Shown here in pieces: positions 5,817 through 64,000 of a stretch of 64,000 nt of DNA. Position numbers and translations under genes: made by a program. The notes beneath the pieces were generated by a model. The model did no database searches. It saw only the letters and a list, made by a program, of their open reading frames with translations, and was not told the DNA's origin. Numbering within the stretch: the stretch's first letter is position 1; each line of letters starts with the position of its first letter. Source of the stretch: a virus. The stretch is taken from IMG/VR virus record IMGVR_UViG_3300047483_000537, positions 32,600 through 96,599 of that record. The stretch is one strand, 5' to 3'.

Positions 5817-6202
5817 GGTTTAACTTTTGAACAAATTTTACTAGCTATAAGGCTCTGTCTAGTGTTATTTCGAAACAGTCTAGATTCTGTACATATATAC
5901 ACCACACGTTTAACATCTTGAGTTTTAACATATATATCTATATTTTTAGTCTCAAGATATTCTACACGTAAAATCTTGCTATCGGAACTAGCAAAAGTTA
6001 CAGGCCGCCAATCTTCATCAAATACACCAAGCTCATAGTAAGAAACCTCTTGTCGCTTGTTAAATAGTTCCATTTTTGTTTGCATTACTCCGTCTATAAA
6101 TGACGTCTCAAACTTAGGATAAGTAGGAGTGAACTGGTGAGCAGAAACCTGCCCACCAAATAAAAATAGTACAAACACTAATAAAGTGTAGTAAAAACGC
6201 AT
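5813..6202 (-). CDS. exported protein, possible pilus-chaperone (PapD-N)-like Ig fold
   Basis: Signal peptide ending VSA; alternating beta-strand pattern (FTPTYP...MELFN...YELGVFD...IDIYV...YICT); fold assignment by eye. Confidence 0.45.
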   Translation of the reverse strand: MRFYYTLLVFVLFLFGGQVSAHQFTPTYPKFETSFIDGVMQTKMELFNKRQEVSYYELGVFDEDWRPVTFASSDSKILRVEYLETKNIDIYVKTQDVKRVVYICTESRLFRNNTRQSLIASKICSKVKP

Positions 6203-10121: not shown

Positions 10122-10801
10122 TTGGTTCTCTTTATAAGATGATCTCGAATCATATCTCTGGCTTGGGCTTTTGTTTCTGGAGTTTTGATATTTAACTTTT
10201 TTACTGCTGCTTGTCGACGAGCTAACTTTTCCTTGAACACAGCATCTACAACTGTCCAGACCATAGTGCGATTTTTACCATAAGGCGTATCTGCACTGTC
10301 TCCACGCTGTAAGTATTCAGAAAAGTTCATGGTCTGTGGAACTTTGTAGCAAACACCATTGTTTTGATTTTTGCAAGTTTCACAGATTGTGGTATGTGGT
10401 TTTACATAAAACCGCCAGTTAGCCTTGCGAAAGCCATGCATAAACAGTGTAGTAGTACCAAGGCTTACACCGGTAAGTCTGTGAGTCTGTTTGTAACTTA
10501 AACGCGCAAAGTTCCACTTTTTTGTAGTACGTTGTTCCGTATAGTTAATACTTTCGGTATACTCACCTTGAAGTAGTAAACTAACACTATTCCAAGGATG
10601 GCTATGCTCGTCTTCACCATCAGGTTCTGAACTTTTAAAAATATGTATATAAGCGTTTGGTAAGTAGTCTAACCATCTTGGATTATCCATGCGATCGCGG
10701 TATAAAAGATAGTATCTATGCCAGTAAACTTTCCCATAGGCATCAACAAGTGCCTCATGCCTGCCAAGTTTTTCAAGCAGCATTAATAAAAATTTAAGCA
10801 T
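10118..10801 (-). CDS. cupin-like metal-binding protein
   Basis: HIF...EHSHPWNSVSLLLQGEYTE...THRL pattern; CETC motif. Confidence 0.55.
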   Translation of the reverse strand: MLKFLLMLLEKLGRHEALVDAYGKVYWHRYYLLYRDRMDNPRWLDYLPNAYIHIFKSSEPDGEDEHSHPWNSVSLLLQGEYTESINYTEQRTTKKWNFARLSYKQTHRLTGVSLGTTTLFMHGFRKANWRFYVKPHTTICETCKNQNNGVCYKVPQTMNFSEYLQRGDSADTPYGKNRTMVWTVVDAVFKEKLARRQAAVKKLNIKTPETKAQARDMIRDHLIKRTK

Positions 10802-10803
10802 AT

Positions 10804-11310
10804 TTATTCTAAAAACGCAAAACCATATACATTGTTAAAAGCAACAATTTCAATAGCAGAATTACTGGTTTGTAAGCAACCTGGAGTGGTCACTGCTTGA
10901 CCATTTACTGTGGCAGTACCGTCACATAAAAACAGTTTGCTGCCAACTGGAAAGGATTGTGAAGCTCCGGCAGCTATATTAATAGGCAGTACATTTGGCA
11001 ACTGTTTTTGATTAAAAACATAGTTAATACACCACCACTGTGTATTTCCTACTGCAGTAAATTTAAACTGCCCTTGTCTGATAGGGTTTAAGTTTTGACT
11101 GAACGTACCTGGCGGTCTATCAAGAACAGGCAAGTTATCTGTTATAGCTTCACCTATTAATAATCCTTTAGTGTATAAAGTAATATTAGCTGCTTCTGTA
11201 CGAGAACCAGTTTTGCTTGTTGTAACAAGAAATGAATACCCATCCAGACACTCTGCTTTATGCACTTTCCAATCAAATGCTTTGTAAACGGTGTATACAA
11301 TATTAGACAT
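10804..11310 (-). CDS. hypothetical protein
   Basis: 168-aa ORF tightly coupled to its neighbours. Confidence 0.7.
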   Translation of the reverse strand: MSNIVYTVYKAFDWKVHKAECLDGYSFLVTTSKTGSRTEAANITLYTKGLLIGEAITDNLPVLDRPPGTFSQNLNPIRQGQFKFTAVGNTQWWCINYVFNQKQLPNVLPINIAAGASQSFPVGSKLFLCDGTATVNGQAVTTPGCLQTSNSAIEIVAFNNVYGFAFLE

Positions 11311-59255: not shown

Positions 59256-60293
59256 ATGACATATTTTAATCAAAACATTCAGCGCATTGGCTTTGCTTGT
59301 AAAATTCAAACAGAGCATGACAAAGCACATCCCGACTTGAATACCAAGTCCACAACCATCAGCTATCTTGCTCGTCAGACCGAAGATAATGTGCGTGCTA
59401 AGCTGTGGGATTTGCTTAACCACAATTTAAGCACCTTTTATCGTCAGCTCAAGTATGTAGCTAATCTGCCAGCACATCAGCGTATGTTTCGCATTACTTC
59501 GGACTTACTGCCAGCATATACTCATGAAGATTATATGCCGTTTTACTTTCAAAGCGACGTAGTTGCCAAGATTGAATACTACCTATCAATGTGCGGCGAG
59601 TTTGCACGTGCCAACGATATTCGTCTTAGCTTCCACCCAGGCCAATTTTGCGTGCTTGCGTCAGAGAATCCTGGTGTTGTAGAGAATTCGATCACAGAGT
59701 TCGAGTATCACTGCGATCTTATTCGTTATATGGGTTACGGCAAGCAGTTTCAAGACTTCAAGTGCAATGTGCACGTTGGCGGCAAACTAGGTCCCGCAGG
59801 TATCAAAGCTGCTATGCGTCGTTTGTCTCCCGAAGCACGCAACTGTTTAACAATCGAAAATGCCGAGTTTACTTGGGGTCTTGATGCTAGCCTTGAGCTG
59901 GTCGACACCTGTGCACTTGTCTTAGACATTCACCACCACTGGATTAACTCAGGAGAATACATTGAACCTACTGATGAACGTTTTAAGCGTGTTTGCGACA
60001 GCTGGCGCGGTGTGCGTCCTGTTATACATTATAGCGTCAGCCGTGAAGACTGCTTGGTTGAACACGACCCAACTACTAGACCAGATCTCAAGCAACTAAA
60101 GTCCATGGGTTTTACCAGTGCTAAGCTTCGTGCTCACAGCGACTACTACTGGAATCAAGCAGTAAATAACTGGGCCTTGACATTTAGTCCCGTTGCCGAT
60201 ATAATGTGTGAATCAAAACAAAAAAACTTGGCAAGCACACCACTTGCAAAGCAATGCCTTATTCAAACAGTTACCTTAATTCAAACAAAATGA
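59256..60293 (+). CDS. uvsE: UV-damage endonuclease
   Basis: IGFAC, FRITSDLLP, RLSFHPGQF, NVHVG, IENAE, LDIHHH, AHSD, DIMCESK. Confidence 0.92.
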   Translation: MTYFNQNIQRIGFACKIQTEHDKAHPDLNTKSTTISYLARQTEDNVRAKLWDLLNHNLSTFYRQLKYVANLPAHQRMFRITSDLLPAYTHEDYMPFYFQSDVVAKIEYYLSMCGEFARANDIRLSFHPGQFCVLASENPGVVENSITEFEYHCDLIRYMGYGKQFQDFKCNVHVGGKLGPAGIKAAMRRLSPEARNCLTIENAEFTWGLDASLELVDTCALVLDIHHHWINSGEYIEPTDERFKRVCDSWRGVRPVIHYSVSREDCLVEHDPTTRPDLKQLKSMGFTSAKLRAHSDYYWNQAVNNWALTFSPVADIMCESKQKNLASTPLAKQCLIQTVTLIQTK

Positions 60294-60736
60294 CTACACA
60301 ACAACCATTTGCCGCAGGTACAAAAAATGACTCTATCTTTAAAACCAATGCTCCGTATGCCAACCAGTATCAAGGTAGCGGTCCTCGCTGGCTTTTTGTG
60401 TGCAGTGCTGGCCTCTTGCGAAGCCCAACCGGTGCCGCTCTTGCTATCCAACGCGGTATCAACGCTCGCAGTTGTGGCTCAAACTTTAACTATGCGTTGA
60501 TTCCTTGTAGTGCCAACTTGATTAACTGGGCACAAAAAATTGTGTTTGTTAATCGTGAAAACTTGTGGCAATTGGAAGATAACTTTTTAGGTCACAAAGA
60601 TTTGTTGGAACAAATTGAACAAAAGCAAATCGTCCTAGACATTCCCGACAATTACGAGTACATGGAACGTGGTTTGGTACTTCACTTTGAAACCGAACTG
60701 TTTGACGTATACAGCCCAGTAACCAAAACAATGTAA
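60290..60736 (+). CDS. low-molecular-weight protein-tyrosine-phosphatase-like protein
   Basis: LFVCSAGLLRSPT (CX5R), LDIPDNYEYM. Confidence 0.8.
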   Translation: MTTQQPFAAGTKNDSIFKTNAPYANQYQGSGPRWLFVCSAGLLRSPTGAALAIQRGINARSCGSNFNYALIPCSANLINWAQKIVFVNRENLWQLEDNFLGHKDLLEQIEQKQIVLDIPDNYEYMERGLVLHFETELFDVYSPVTKTM

Positions 60737-60742
60737 CAATAA

Positions 60743-60818
60743 CCGTCTGTGGTCTAACGGATAAGACAAGGGTCTTCTACACCCTGAGATGTGGGTTCGA
60801 TTCCTGCCAGACGGGCCA
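60743..60818 (+). tRNA. tRNA-Arg(TCT)
   Basis: Acceptor CCGTCTG/CAGACGG, anticodon arm AGGGT-CTTCTAC-ACCCT, TTCGA T-loop, encoded CCA. Confidence 0.92.
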
Positions 60819-60878
60819 AATTTCAAACTTGAACATTTGTTTAAATCAGCTTATAATATAGGCTGATTTGGAGAAATT

Positions 60879-61091
60879 ATGAATAAAGTTCTTTTAGACC
60901 TGCTTAAACAATCAACTGTGACCAAGTATCGTGGCATGGGTGAGATTGATGAACTTGACCAAAAGAAGTTCGCTGAACTAATCGTTCGCGAAGCTGCCAG
61001 TCTAGTTGCTAGTGCACAGATTACAAAAGACGGACATACTTGGCGATCCGCTGACTATGTTGTCCTAGAGCATTTTGGAGTTGACAAATGA
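60879..61091 (+). CDS. hypothetical protein
   Basis: Promoter and GGAG SD; KFAELIVRE...HFGV. Confidence 0.7.
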   Translation: MNKVLLDLLKQSTVTKYRGMGEIDELDQKKFAELIVREAASLVASAQITKDGHTWRSADYVVLEHFGVDK

Positions 61092-61420
61092 GTAGTTACA
61101 CACCAGACGTTTGGGTCGTCTTAGAATTTGACGCACCGCAACTTGAAAAACCAATGCGTAAAGTCTTTGCGGGCTGGTACGGTGGTTACACCGGAAGCAA
61201 TAGTTGGAAACTTAATTCGGGCATTACTGAAGTACGCATTGACGACCAAGGCCACTATGAGTTTGATGGCTATAGTGGTAGTACTTACTACTGCCACTTC
61301 AATAACTACCATATGAGCAGCTTAATGCAAGGAGTTCTAGCCAATTGGTTAAAAGAAGCCGATCTGCGCGGCGATACAACAATCAGAATTTTGAGTATTG
61401 ACGAGATTGTTAAAACTTGA
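61088..61420 (+). CDS. phage hypothetical protein
   Basis: YTPD.WVV...KVFAGWYGGY.GS.SWKLNSGI...GYSGSTY.C. Confidence 0.75.
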   Translation: MSSYTPDVWVVLEFDAPQLEKPMRKVFAGWYGGYTGSNSWKLNSGITEVRIDDQGHYEFDGYSGSTYYCHFNNYHMSSLMQGVLANWLKEADLRGDTTIRILSIDEIVKT

Positions 61421-61447
61421 TATAATATAGGCTGATTTGGAGATATT

Positions 61448-61648
61448 ATGGCAGGCTATTCACGCGACTTTTTAATTGACGCTTTTATGTCACGATACAT
61501 TTGTTGCACTCTTATTACTATAGAGCAACTTGTAAATCTTGAGCAAATGGCAAACGATCTTTATGATCGAGTTGGTCGCGATAGTTTCCGTACATATGCC
61601 AGCTTAGATGCTGAAGCACTCAGAGTCTATAAAAATAGTGTTGACTGA
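61448..61648 (+). CDS. hypothetical protein
   Basis: Same leader sequence as the 60879 gene. Confidence 0.65.
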   Translation: MAGYSRDFLIDAFMSRYICCTLITIEQLVNLEQMANDLYDRVGRDSFRTYASLDAEALRVYKNSVD

Positions 61649-61669
61649 TTGTGGTCTTTGTTGTATAAT
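61641..61669 (+). promoter_or_regulatory. promoter of the tRNA/ncRNA cluster
   Basis: TTGACT-N17-TATAAT. Confidence 0.8.
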
Positions 61670-61923
61670 TAGTTCTTTAAATAATATAATTGCCCGTTTG
61701 CATCACTGACTTGCTCCCTAATGAGTTATATGCTTCGTAAAATGCGATTACCAAGGTAGTTGGTGGTAGTTGTGGTTATCAAACTTGAGGACTGTCGTCC
61801 AATAGTAGCAAGACTATATGAGCCACTTAGGGGTGGCACTCATATAAAAGCACATACTGTTCCGCCCTCTAGTTGGGGAGATAGCGACTAGCGTTGATGG
61901 ACTGTTTAAGTGTGCTTTTATAT

Positions 61924-62091
61924 GGGTCGGTAGCTTAACTTGGTTAAAGCGCAAATCCGGACTACAAACCCTTCACCTAGTAGCCTCTCCTCTGCCGCAA
62001 GCACGAAGGTAACGGTGGGCTGAATTCGAATATACGCTTATGGGATTGTAGAATTTTAGAGAAGCAGGTTCAAGCCCTGCCTGACCCACCA
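61924..62091 (+). ncRNA. 168-nt tRNA-like RNA with a large insertion in place of the anticodon arm
   Basis: Acceptor GGGTCGG/CTGACCC-A-CCA, D arm GCTT/AAGC, T arm GCAGG-TTCAAGC-CCTGC; about 110 nt between D and T arms including stem CTACAAACCC/GGGATTGTAG. Confidence 0.75.
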
Positions 62092-62353
62092 TATTTTAGT
62101 GCTTTCCAGCGGAATACTAGAGAAAGTTTTGTCGCCACTGTGCTTTGGCGCGACAATCGTATCGTCTAGTCTATGCGTGGACATGAGCTTGCGGAATCCA
62201 CAGATAACCGCAAACTGAAAGTACTAAAATATGGCTTGAAAAATTCTTACTTGTTTTTGTATTGCAAAACAGGTATAATAGTTATTCTGATCTTGCTTCC
62301 ACCGACAGATCACTATATCGGGGAGATTTCGCACTATTCTAAAAAGTGTAGTT

Positions 62354-62427
62354 CTCGGTGTAGTGAAATGGCATCACCCGACGTTTGGGGCGTTGAAGCG
62401 CAAGTTCGATTCTTGCCACCGAGACCA
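62354..62427 (+). tRNA. tRNA-Pro(TGG)
   Basis: CTCGGTG/CACCGAG, CGACG-TTTGGGG-CGTTG, CCA. Confidence 0.9.
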
Positions 62428-62608
62428 TATTGTTGTGGCCTTTGCTAGATTCCGGTTCAGTCGCGGAGCTTTACAAGAAGAATTGGCCTTGCTTTCTAGA
62501 TAAGCATTGCCTATACCTTGAGCTTAGTAAATAGCAAGAAGTAATTGATCTATGTAAAACTAAGCCGATGCCTTAGCGGGTGTGGTAGTAAACAAAGGTT
62601 ACAACAAT

Positions 62609-62782
62609 ATGGAAATTAAAAGCGTATCTAAAACACTTGGCTTATATTATGGCCGTGTAAAAGAAACAGTCTATACTACAAAAATTGACGAAAACAACAA
62701 AGAGTTTGTTCAACAAGTAGTATATTTACGATCAGGCAAGCTAGAACCACTAAAAGGTTCTAGTGTAGATACAAAAGTATAA
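62609..62782 (+). CDS. hypothetical protein
   Basis: MEIKSVSK...KGSSVDTKV, 57 aa, between RNA modules. Confidence 0.5.
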   Translation: MEIKSVSKTLGLYYGRVKETVYTTKIDENNKEFVQQVVYLRSGKLEPLKGSSVDTKV

Positions 62783-62783
62783 C

Positions 62784-62867
62784 GCGCAAGTGGTGGAATG
62801 GTATACACGCTGGTCTTAGAAGCCAGTGCCGAAAGGATTGAGAGTTCGAGTCTCTCTTTGCGCACCA
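62784..62867 (+). tRNA. tRNA-Leu(TAG)
   Basis: GCGCAAG/TTTGCGC, CTGGT-CTTAGAA-GCCAG, long variable arm, CCA. Confidence 0.93.
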
Positions 62868-62873
62868 CATTTT

Positions 62874-62949
62874 GGGGTCTTAGCTCAGCTGGGAGAGCGG
62901 CTGCTTTGCAAGCAGTAGGTCAACGGTTCGAACCCGTTATTCTCCACCA
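62874..62949 (+). tRNA. tRNA-Ala(TGC)
   Basis: G3:U70 pair, GCTGC-TTTGCAA-GCAGT, CCA; acceptor pairs 5 and 6 are mismatched. Confidence 0.85.
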
Positions 62950-62964
62950 ATTTTAAATATTATT

Positions 62965-63087
62965 ATGAAAACACGAAAACCCAGGAACCACGTCCAACTA
63001 GCGCTGATGAAGCGTGGCGGCAGTGGTTCACATCAAAAAAGCCACAAGCAGCTTCGTGGCCAATGGAAGCGCAACCTGGACGTATAA
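62965..63087 (+). CDS. 40-aa basic peptide, possibly ArfA-like (not in the ORF track)
   Basis: MKTRKPRNHVQLALMKRGGSGSHQKSHKQLRGQWKRNLDV*; stop codon lies inside tRNA-Lys. Confidence 0.55.
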   Translation: MKTRKPRNHVQLALMKRGGSGSHQKSHKQLRGQWKRNLDV

Positions 63088-63152
63088 CTTAACGGCTAAA
63101 GTAGTGGGCTTTTAACCTACAAATCAGAGTTCGATTCTCTGTGCGTCTACCA
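63078..63152 (+). tRNA. tRNA-Lys(TTT)
   Basis: GGACGTA/TGCGTCT, GTGGG-CTTTTAA-CCTAC, CAGAG-TTCGATT-CTCTG, CCA. Confidence 0.88.
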
Positions 63153-63407
63153 TATTTGAACACATTGGCAAGTTGGCGTTCAACCACTTGAAATCATTAC
63201 CTGCGCAGGCAACACGTTTAGGCAACGAGGTACACGTTGCAAAAGTGGAAGCTAGTGTGTTCAAATATGGTATTATATACAAATACTCTGTGTAGCTACA
63301 GTGGAACCCCGATAGCTTGCTAAAGTCGACTAAGCAAGAACCGGCCATGAAGAGTGAGGGCTACTACAGATTCAAGCACTGAACAGAGTATTTCTATATG
63401 TTATTAC

Positions 63408-63499
63408 GGCCCTATAGTTTAATGGTAAAACGGCGGATTTATATCCCGTAAGCAACAGATAATTGGTTCATCTGGGTTCGAATCCCGGTGGGGCTACCA
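63408..63499 (+). tRNA. tRNA-Ile(TAT) with long variable arm
   Basis: GGCCCTA/TGGGGCT, loop TTTATAT (anticodon TAT), 22-nt variable region, CTGGG-TTCGAAT-CCCGG, CCA. Confidence 0.75.
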
Positions 63500-63504
63500 A
63501 AAAT

Positions 63505-63876
63505 ATGAATACAAAACAAAAAGGCAACGCTGGTATAGGTGCCGCAATAGCATATTTTACTAGACAAGGTCACAATGTGCTAATACCTTTGACAGATAGT
63601 CAAGAGTATGACTTAGTGGTAGATATTGACGGCTTTTTAAATAAAGTACAGGTAAAATATACTGCACAAAAAGCACCTTCTGGTAGCTATCTAATAGCTT
63701 TAAGAAGTATTAGTGGTAGCAGTAGGCAAGAGTACAAAACGGTACAAAATACTGATATAGACTATCTTTTCTGCCTAACTGAGTTAGGTGATACATATCT
63801 AGTACCTATATTGGAACTAAATCATGCTTCAACAATGACAATTAATACTGCTTTTAAAGATAAGTATAAAGTATAA
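63505..63876 (+). CDS. free-standing PD-(D/E)XK homing-type endonuclease
   Basis: TKQKG..G...GHNVLIP...YDLVVD...KVQVK...IDY; resembles group I intron-associated PD-(D/E)XK nucleases; sits between tRNA genes. Confidence 0.75.
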   Translation: MNTKQKGNAGIGAAIAYFTRQGHNVLIPLTDSQEYDLVVDIDGFLNKVQVKYTAQKAPSGSYLIALRSISGSSRQEYKTVQNTDIDYLFCLTELGDTYLVPILELNHASTMTINTAFKDKYKV

Positions 63877-63885
63877 AGTATAACT

Positions 63886-63975
63886 GGAACAATCCCATAA
63901 TGGTATTGGAGCTGATTGCTAATCAGTCGCTCGGCGTAATCCGGGTTCGGGGTTCAAGTCCCCGTTGTTCCGCCA
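63886..63975 (+). tRNA. tRNA-Ser(GCT)
   Basis: GGAACAA/TTGTTCC-G-CCA, GCTGA-TTGCTAA-TCAGT, long variable arm. Confidence 0.92.
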
Positions 63976-64000
63976 AATTATGCAGCAGGTAGTGTAATGG

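Follow-up and report, generated by a model that had tools for sequence, protein, structure and literature searches.

Long terminal stems enclose diverse candidate small RNAs in the tRNA cluster of a distant relative of phage T5

The transfer RNA (tRNA) cluster of the virus record IMGVR_UViG_3300047483_000537 contains five modules, M1 to M5, whose different interiors are each closed by a long stem of similar sequence. The window analyzed here is a stretch of 64,000 nucleotides (nt) that corresponds to positions 32,600-96,599 of this IMG/VR record and represents the right-hand two thirds of the 96.6 kilobase (kb) sequence (40.5% G+C, 91% complete according to CheckV). On balance, the five modules probably belong to one architectural class in which a cargo RNA lies inside a terminal stem of ca. 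17-22 base pairs (bp) built from the inter-gene spacer of a polycistronic tRNA operon, with the stems serving in processing and stability and releasing discrete small RNAs. The tRNA cluster crosses the right contig end and resumes at the left end of the record, comprising 22 tRNAs in total. The left-end part of the genome is labeled L001, related IMG/VR loci are labeled L002-L019, L023 and L044, Stenotrophomonas phage DLP_6 is L024 and phage T5 is L059.

All five stems are present exactly where, or within 3 nt of where, a first-pass annotation of the window had placed them and rank first to fifth by length among the inverted repeats of 60000-64000 (Table 1). Each arm measures 17-22 nt, and complementarity is 90-94% with G:U scored as a mismatch. 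Between 61600 and 63499, six stems with at least 13 Watson-Crick pairs are found (best 20 pairs) compared with a mean of 0.12 in 200 dinucleotide shuffles, where stems spanning 40-250 nt were counted and the shuffled maximum was 2 stems, the best having 16 pairs. Each module is predicted to fold into its closing stem, and the z scores relative to dinucleotide shuffles are given in Table 1. G:U pairs, described earlier as a feature of the stems, occur in M1 (extended stem), M2, M3 and M4. The single mismatch of the M5 stem, C-C, is an A-U pair in relatives. No Rfam family matched the modules when 61400-64000 was searched at the gathering score and at E-values up to 10.

The module ends are phased with the neighboring tRNA genes. 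Gene placements by ARAGORN and Rfam put the starts of M2, M3 and M4 on an encoded CCA, namely that of a tRNA-like RNA (62089-62091), of tRNA-Pro (62425-62427) and of tRNA-Lys (63150-63152), in agreement with the initial claim that three modules begin in this way. The M4 stem sets in over position 72, the discriminator and the CCA of tRNA-Lys. The tRNA-like RNA has intact acceptor, D and T arms, but its anticodon arm is replaced by a 102-nt insert. Most relatives retain this RNA with a variable insert. Its first bases are formed by the last 4 nt of M1 (GGGU). At its other end M1 starts with CUCAUAU in the window and with (U)CCAUAU in most relatives, and orthologs with 92-95% identity are found in 8 relatives. 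M2 has its sole ortholog in L004 (93%), other relatives possessing different modules of 71-122 nt at this location. M5 lies 2 nt past M4 and 8 nt ahead of tRNA-Ile(UAU). Further modules of the same build are located in the left part of the genome at L001 9379-9491 (tRNA-Thr/tmRNA, the latter being transfer-messenger RNA) and L001 10509-10582.

Modules of this kind recur throughout the tRNA clusters of related phages. Using the protein encoded just upstream of the cluster, we identified 22 IMG/VR loci, 19 of which contain a tRNA cluster. Across these 19 relatives, 188 long stems are found in ca. 192 kb of tRNA cluster compared with 43 weaker ones in ca. 160 kb of upstream coding DNA. De-duplication leaves 141 strong modules with a median stem of 21 bp (15-29 bp) and a median length of 102 nt (38-260 nt), and genomes of the clade carry seven or more modules each. 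The stem typically starts on the discriminator or CCA of an upstream tRNA or tRNA-like RNA and often ends at or just before the next +1 position: relative to tRNAs placed by ARAGORN, 43 of the 141 modules have their start between -4 and -1 of a tRNA end, and 30 of the 141 have their end between -1 and +9 of a following tRNA start. Roughly half of the 141 begin with (N)(N)CCA, and about half do not follow a recognizable tRNA. The spacer after tRNA-Lys holds a module in every relative, with lengths from 39 to 129 nt. Following the CCA, the 5' arm has the consensus U-A-U-W-W-W-A-R-Y-A-Y-A-Y-U; the (CC)ATAT element noted in the first-pass annotation is indeed shared, but the extent of the likeness was understated as the consensus spans ca. 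14-17 nt. CCATAT-type stems are thus conserved in related phages. The proposal of a common carrier stem around unrelated interiors holds for these phages, in which the arrangement recurs, covaries and bears signs of RNA-level selection on the tRNA strand.

The stems are under selection for pairing on the tRNA strand. In an unbiased rescan that treated G:T and A:C alike, the strong modules contain 2413 Watson-Crick pairs, 161 G:U pairs and 46 A:C pairs, corresponding to a 3.5-fold G:U excess on the tRNA strand, whereas stems outside the clusters contain 98 G:U and 88 A:C pairs. The excess is confined to cluster stems and therefore indicates selection on tRNA-strand pairing, pointing to RNA and bearing out the earlier use of G:U pairs as a sign of RNA-level pairing. 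Compensatory changes affect 30 of 46 M3 pairs in an alignment of 11 sequences and 22 of 34 pairs in one of 24 sequences. The closing stem of M4 covaries while its interior is conserved (5 orthologs), and covariation is also found in the closing stem of M6, a module located before or after the tmRNA. In L019, where M6 follows the tmRNA with no tRNA adjacent, CCA/UGG is replaced by CUA/UAG; it is therefore the pair that is conserved and not the CCA.

These observations also bear on the idea that the modules are palindromic cassettes at the DNA level, similar to miniature inverted-repeat transposable elements (MITEs) or recombination handles, which would spread or shuffle tRNA and RNA genes via their inverted ends with RNA folding as a by-product. 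Such cassettes could account for the consensus of ca. 14-17 nt shared by the terminal inverted repeats, for the patchy presence and absence of modules among close relatives, for the homing endonucleases in the cluster (PDDEXK_5, 63463-63876) and for the finding of the same cargo families in different tRNA contexts, as is the case for M5, M6 and a Phe-linked family that lies between the Lys and Ser tRNAs in L006. However, the 3.5-fold excess of G:U over A:C is found on the tRNA strand and only inside clusters, the stems diverge by compensatory changes unlike the identical copies of recent transposons, inner helices covary and the modules begin and end in register with CCA and +1. MITEs and repetitive extragenic palindromic elements are near-identical copies without strand bias, whereas no genome contains two modules with the same interior, and the open reading frames (ORFs) of the cluster that were tested included no transposase. 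We consider a DNA-level origin of the pattern to be distinctly improbable. Recombination through shared stems may drive module shuffling, which is compatible with the modules being RNA elements.

The enclosed cargos are diverse and in part conserved. The smallest interior is a 7-nt loop (L019 12169-12207; L004 11772-11809) and the largest reach ca. 150 nt. They fall into ca. 65 similarity families in 20 genomes, many of which occur a single time. Rfam searches of the window and four relatives yielded no match for any interior, and in the four relatives they detected only tRNA, tmRNA and weak tRNA-Sec matches. Some modules enclose a tRNA, much as the processing stems of ribosomal RNA surround that RNA, for example L002 11070-11191 with a tRNA interior at 11083-11179 and modules in L004 and L023 containing tRNA-His. 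Cargo hairpins inspected by eye for mimicry of anticodon loops gave nothing convincing. M5 orthologs are present at the same place in L003 and between tRNA-Tyr and tRNA-Leu in L006, both with conserved interior blocks, and in M4, M5 and M6 conservation is higher in interior blocks than in parts of the modules' own stems. The covarying helices and invariant blocks of M3 and the conserved interiors of M4, M5 and M6 indicate that at least some modules carry a functional cargo.

Cargo conservation also bears on an explanation in which the modules are spacer or insulator hairpins for tRNA maturation alone. Such hairpins would prevent misfolding, present the CCA/+1 junctions to ribonuclease (RNase) E, RNase P and RNase III, or shield the CCA, and their interiors would be filler. 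A spacer after tRNA-Lys that holds anything from a bare 39-nt hairpin to a 129-nt module is in line with this, as are the fast turnover of interiors (ca. 65 families in 141 modules, many of them singletons) and the 43 modules that start exactly on a tRNA discriminator or CCA. Filler would not be expected, however, to contain the covarying inner helices and invariant blocks that M3 retains in 24 diverse sequences, nor the interiors of M4, M5 and M6 that stay conserved even in other tRNA contexts. A role in tRNA maturation alone also fits poorly with the roughly half of strong modules that have no recognizable tRNA neighbor, with distant M3 copies that have no tRNA on either side and with the annotation of the T5 counterparts as stable RNAs. 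This explanation is unlikely in our view.

M3 is, judged by fold conservation and covariation, a well-supported new structured RNA family. Its predicted multi-helix fold of 183-191 nt is conserved, its inner helices covary and it contains invariant blocks such as CUUAGCGG and GGYAGUAAACA. A covariance model of the family (R1) scores 165.7 bits at the window M3. A comparison of M3 with Rfam gave no match. The M3 motif CTTAGCGGNNNNGGNAGNAAACA is found in 34 IMG/VR stretches, while a search of GTDB bacterial genomes produced 16 pattern matches, a number not exceeding chance by our estimate, and none of the 16 scored with R1. The 3' arm of the window M3 contains the AUG of an ORF of 57 amino acids (62609-62782) for which no Pfam family was found, and in relatives the letters downstream of M3 again read as an ORF from an AUG in the stem. 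A distant M3 subgroup, lacking a tRNA on either side, has GGAG or AGGAG directly after the stem and an ATG 8-12 nt later. Combined with the conserved multi-helix interior, these features are reminiscent of a cis-acting leader of the riboswitch or thermometer type that would conceal, within its closing stem, the Shine-Dalgarno sequence or start codon of the following small ORF. In L002, L004, L007 and L044, however, a tRNA-Ala and no ORF directly follows M3, and known switching helices are much less stable than a closing stem of 20-22 bp. A leader function, which would concern M3 only, is thus very unlikely.

The architecture of the modules is also found in stable RNAs of phage T5, to which the phage analyzed here is distantly related. 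Its genes include those for a protease-fused HK97-type capsid protein, a T5 p143-type tail protein and a portal with 40% identity to portals of T5-like Vibrio phages, the portal similarity and the tail protein being the basis of this kinship. When the region was compared by blastn with 50,697 phage records, only tRNAs matched, and thus no close cultured relative was found. In the T5 record NC_005859, RNAIII, RNAI, RNA1, RNA2H, RNAIV, RNA2, RNA3 and RNAX are interleaved with tRNAs and annotated as 'stable RNA with unknown functions'. RNAIII is enclosed by a 20-bp stem (GCCACAAUUGAAAAUUCGUA / UGCGAGUUUUCAAUUGUGGC) whose onset is the CCA of RNAI and whose end consists of the first bases of tRNA-His. 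RNAIV is enclosed by a 17-bp stem and RNA2H by one of ca. 30 bp. We further identified an unannotated 107-nt T5 module (L059 11428-11534, minus strand) with a 20-bp CAUAU...AUAUG stem (CAUAUCUGAAUG...CAUUCAAAUAUG) that directly precedes tRNA-Tyr downstream of promoter P14a. For RNAIII, RNAIV and RNA2H, the annotated ends are positioned within the stem and leave 3' overhangs of 1-3 nt, which fits a staggered RNase III cut.

Both lineages, which are related, carry RNAs inside long closing stems in the tRNA cluster and on the tRNA strand. A tRNA-like RNA with an insert lies beside the modules here, and RNA1 and RNA2 of T5 are annotated as 'tRNA-like stable RNA'. In line with the expectation that modules yield discrete products, T5 modules of the same build are annotated as discrete stable RNAs. 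T5 differs in having about four modules and no common stem consensus, whereas the clade described here has at least seven modules per genome, a CCAUAUWWWARYAY stem and ca. 65 cargo families. Homology between M3 and T5 RNA2H was considered on the basis of tRNA-Ala/tRNA-Leu synteny and a few similar words and was rejected by R1 with filters on or off; on T5 the model reaches at most 9.8 bits, which come from the stem alone. Searches for studies of the T5 stable RNAs found nothing relevant in the literature collection covered.

A processing pathway can be proposed for the module class. The operon would be transcribed from a promoter-like site at 61641-61669 without internal terminators. This site probably starts a transcript of M1, the tRNA-like RNA, M2 and the downstream genes, as judged by its sequence, and one long transcript is plausible because the promoter-like site is strong and no terminator-like site was found on the plus strand between it and 64000. 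Host RNase III would then cut the long duplexes with a 2-nt stagger and separate the flanking tRNAs, which would be completed by RNase P and 3' exonucleases. The stems resemble RNase III substrates in being near-perfect duplexes of about two turns (17-22 bp in the window; median 21 bp in the 141 modules). The cargo would be freed as a hairpin-ended RNA and accumulate like T5 RNAIII, RNAIV and RNA2H because its paired ends would resist 3' exonucleases. A/U-rich outer stems (UAUWWW / WWWAUA) suit E. coli RNase E after the CCA and RNase P in the 5' leader, so these enzymes could act beside or instead of RNase III. Precedents that support excision by analogy are the hairpin of the phage's own two-piece tmRNA and the RNase III removal of intervening sequences from ribosomal RNA (rRNA) as described for Coxiella (PMC4990558).

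Several points weigh against this interpretation. Module release in this phage is predicted from sequence, and no phage-encoded RNase III was found in the 91% complete record. The first-pass idea that the stems are RNase III substrates gains indirect support from the geometry of the T5 ends as annotated, which may or may not have been mapped by experiment, and would apply to this phage by extrapolation. A blastn-short comparison of the T5 stable RNAs with the window modules gave only chance words of 9-11 nt and no sequence homology; the link between the two is architectural. Modules of 38-46 nt in L004, L011, L014, L016 and L019 hold almost no cargo, so the stem must have a role of its own that small-RNA release does not explain. 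Equally, the perfect 20-bp stem could block translation by covering the AUG or Shine-Dalgarno sequence of the ORF that follows M3. Sequestration of the CCA, raised in the first-pass annotation as a means of controlling tRNA maturation, is not the whole story because about half of the modules have no recognizable upstream tRNA and distant M3 copies have none. What stands of that first interpretation is the carrier stem, the unrelated interiors and their conservation, and its RNase III step is retained here as a proposal.

Near-perfect flanking duplexes likewise surround an enclosed RNA in the RNase III processing stems of the 16S/23S rRNA leader-trailer, of T7 early-RNA sites and of 23S intervening sequences, in which cutting frees the enclosed piece and its neighbors without re-ligation. 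The modules differ from rRNA processing stems in that their neighbors are tRNAs and their junctions are phased to CCA and +1. A report on the intervening sequence of Coxiella 23S rRNA describes its excision by RNase III and its rapid degradation once excised (PMC4990558). Such a short-lived product contrasts with the T5 counterparts of the modules, which are annotated as stable and for which, as for all modules, RNase III cutting is presumptive. The phage tmRNA provides a further comparison as its intervening segment forms a hairpin from the CCA to the GGGGCUG 5' end (CCAUAAGCACG...CGUGCUUUUGAUGG), also in relatives. Two-piece tmRNAs lose the intervening segment during maturation. This segment joins the halves of one RNA, whereas the modules join separate genes and several have conserved cargo. 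Small RNAs within tRNA transcripts are known from the species 1 and 2 RNAs of T4 (rnaC, rnaD), the tRNA-microRNA units of murine gammaherpesvirus 68 and engineered tRNA-guide RNA arrays, in which the tRNA-processing machinery releases the small RNA and no promoter or terminator of its own is needed. None of these units is known to have a common stem of ca. 20 bp in which an upstream CCA is paired with the +1 region of the downstream gene, and homology is not expected.

Bacterial Y RNAs (YrlA, RF02553), partners of Ro60/Rsr, likewise combine a terminal stem with a variable module, which is the general Y RNA plan. The genome analyzed here encodes a Ro60 ortholog with a weak YrlA match beside the gene, which raises the question of whether the modules are Y-RNA-like ligands of the phage Ro60, the terminal stem being the binding platform and the interior the effector. 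Against this, 61400-64000 contains no YrlA or Y RNA match at E-values up to 10, and Ro60 (genome 6152-7462) and the five modules (genome 94437-95998) are located in different parts of the cluster. The stems also look different: known Y RNAs have a bulged helix bound by Ro, whereas the modules are near-perfect A/U-rich duplexes. Suggestive in the same direction is that modules of this kind exist in T5 and that Escherichia lies outside the ten commonest names in the 95 Ro60-matching phage records (nine names fall outside these ten). A Y RNA function for the modules is highly improbable.

The surroundings of the modules contain a number of additional features (Table 1). Just past the promoter-like site, at ca. 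61653-61691, a stretch of 25-30 nt has 90-96% identity in five relatives. For the leader at 61695-61840 (z = -0.3) and the spacer at 62235-62353 (z = -0.9), folding does not surpass that of shuffles and gives no indication of structured RNA. Upstream of the RNA cluster, 60845-60882 and 61420-61450 contain two copies of TATAATATAGGCTGATTTGGAGA(A/T)ATTATG, a common -10, leader and ribosome binding site cassette before two small ORFs. The extra arm of tRNA-Ile(UAU) comprises 17-19 nt, which is unusual for tRNA-Ile, and Stenotrophomonas phage DLP_6 has an annotated tRNA-Ile-TAT of equal length (L024 4650-4741). Between tRNA-Ile and tRNA-Ser, 63463-63876 encodes a PD-(D/E)XK endonuclease (PDDEXK_5, PF11645, E = 4e-22), probably a free-standing homing endonuclease resembling the HNH genes of the T5 tRNA cluster.

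In the left part of the genome, the tmRNA is also matched by the beta-proteobacterial tmRNA model, which may hint at the host. A tRNA-Sec-like RNA at L001 10420-10507 (35.9 bits, below the gathering score) has an odd anticodon loop and is directly followed by the CCA-anchored module at 10509-10582, an arrangement also present in L006. The Ro60 gene is flanked by other long-stem RNAs at L001 5812-6011 and 7525-7623 and by the weak YrlA match (6021-6133, 30.8 bits); the best phage homolog of its protein is found in Ralstonia phage RsoM2USA (56% identity). The DUF458 protein has homologs in 77 phage records, and in the one inspected, Stenotrophomonas phage DLP_6, the gene likewise lies inside the tRNA cluster. 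As a nuclease dedicated to the modules it was rejected because the DLP_6 tRNA cluster has the gene without such stems.

Table 1. Positions of the modules and other features in the window and, where marked L001, in the left-end part of the same genome outside the window.
Feature	Position	Strand	Details
Promoter-like site TTGACT-17-TATAAT	61641-61669	+	11/12 matches
M1, 90 nt	61838-61927	+	stem 61838-61855 / 61910-61927 (inverted repeat 61838-61854 / 61911-61927); z = -4.8
tRNA-like RNA, encoded CCA	61924-62091	+	Rfam tRNA 35.6 bits, [102] insert
M2, 146 nt	62089-62234	+	18-bp stem 62089-62106 / 62217-62234, one G:U; z = -4.8
tRNA-Pro(UGG)	62354-62427	+	ARAGORN, Rfam
M3, 188 nt	62425-62612	+	20-22 bp stem, 62425-62444 / 62593-62612; z = -4.2
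ORF of 57 amino acids	62609-62782	+	AUG inside M3 3' arm
tRNA-Lys(UUU)	63078-63152	+	ARAGORN, Rfam
M4, 125 nt	63148-63272	+	22-bp stem 63148-63169 / 63251-63272, two G:U; z = -6.1
M5, 125 nt	63275-63399	+	17-bp stem 63275-63291 / 63383-63399; z = -2.3
tRNA-Ile(UAU), 92 nt, long extra arm	63408-63499	+	tRNA and covariance-model search
Ro60 ortholog	L001 6152-7462		TROVE and Ro60 vWA domains
DUF458 / RNase H-like protein (PF04308)	L001 8555-9022		within tRNA cluster
Permuted two-piece tmRNA	L001 9489-9754		tag ANDQVYALAA; RF04321, 115.6 bits
ClpP protease gene	L001 9826-10413		after tmRNA

The non-tRNA stable RNAs of T5 (RNAI, RNAIII, RNAIV) and T4 (species 1 and 2) have long been known, and neither a function nor a construction rule has been added since their first description. 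The module class supplies such a construction rule, a covarying consensus stem of ca. 20 bp that is phased from CCA to +1 and surrounds many different cargos. New aspects are also the M3 family, the RNase III-like end geometry in T5 and the scale of the class, which comprises at least seven modules per genome and, across 20 genomes, ca. 65 cargo families. Infection of E. coli by T5 represents a tractable system in which to study the module mechanism. Phage tRNA clusters are now regarded as counter-defence tools. A more speculative proposal, in which we place little confidence, is that the CCAUAU stem is a generic carrier in the T5-like clade through which an exchangeable library of dozens of small RNAs is expressed via the host tRNA and RNase III machinery, the cargos being traded by stem recombination and affecting the host in trans, for example as sponges or decoys that occupy proteins of tRNA- or RNA-directed defence or of RNA quality control. 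If cargos do act on host proteins, they would represent a large unexplored class of phage small RNAs, and if exchangeable cargos act in trans, the tRNA cluster would be an RNA-based counter-defence island.

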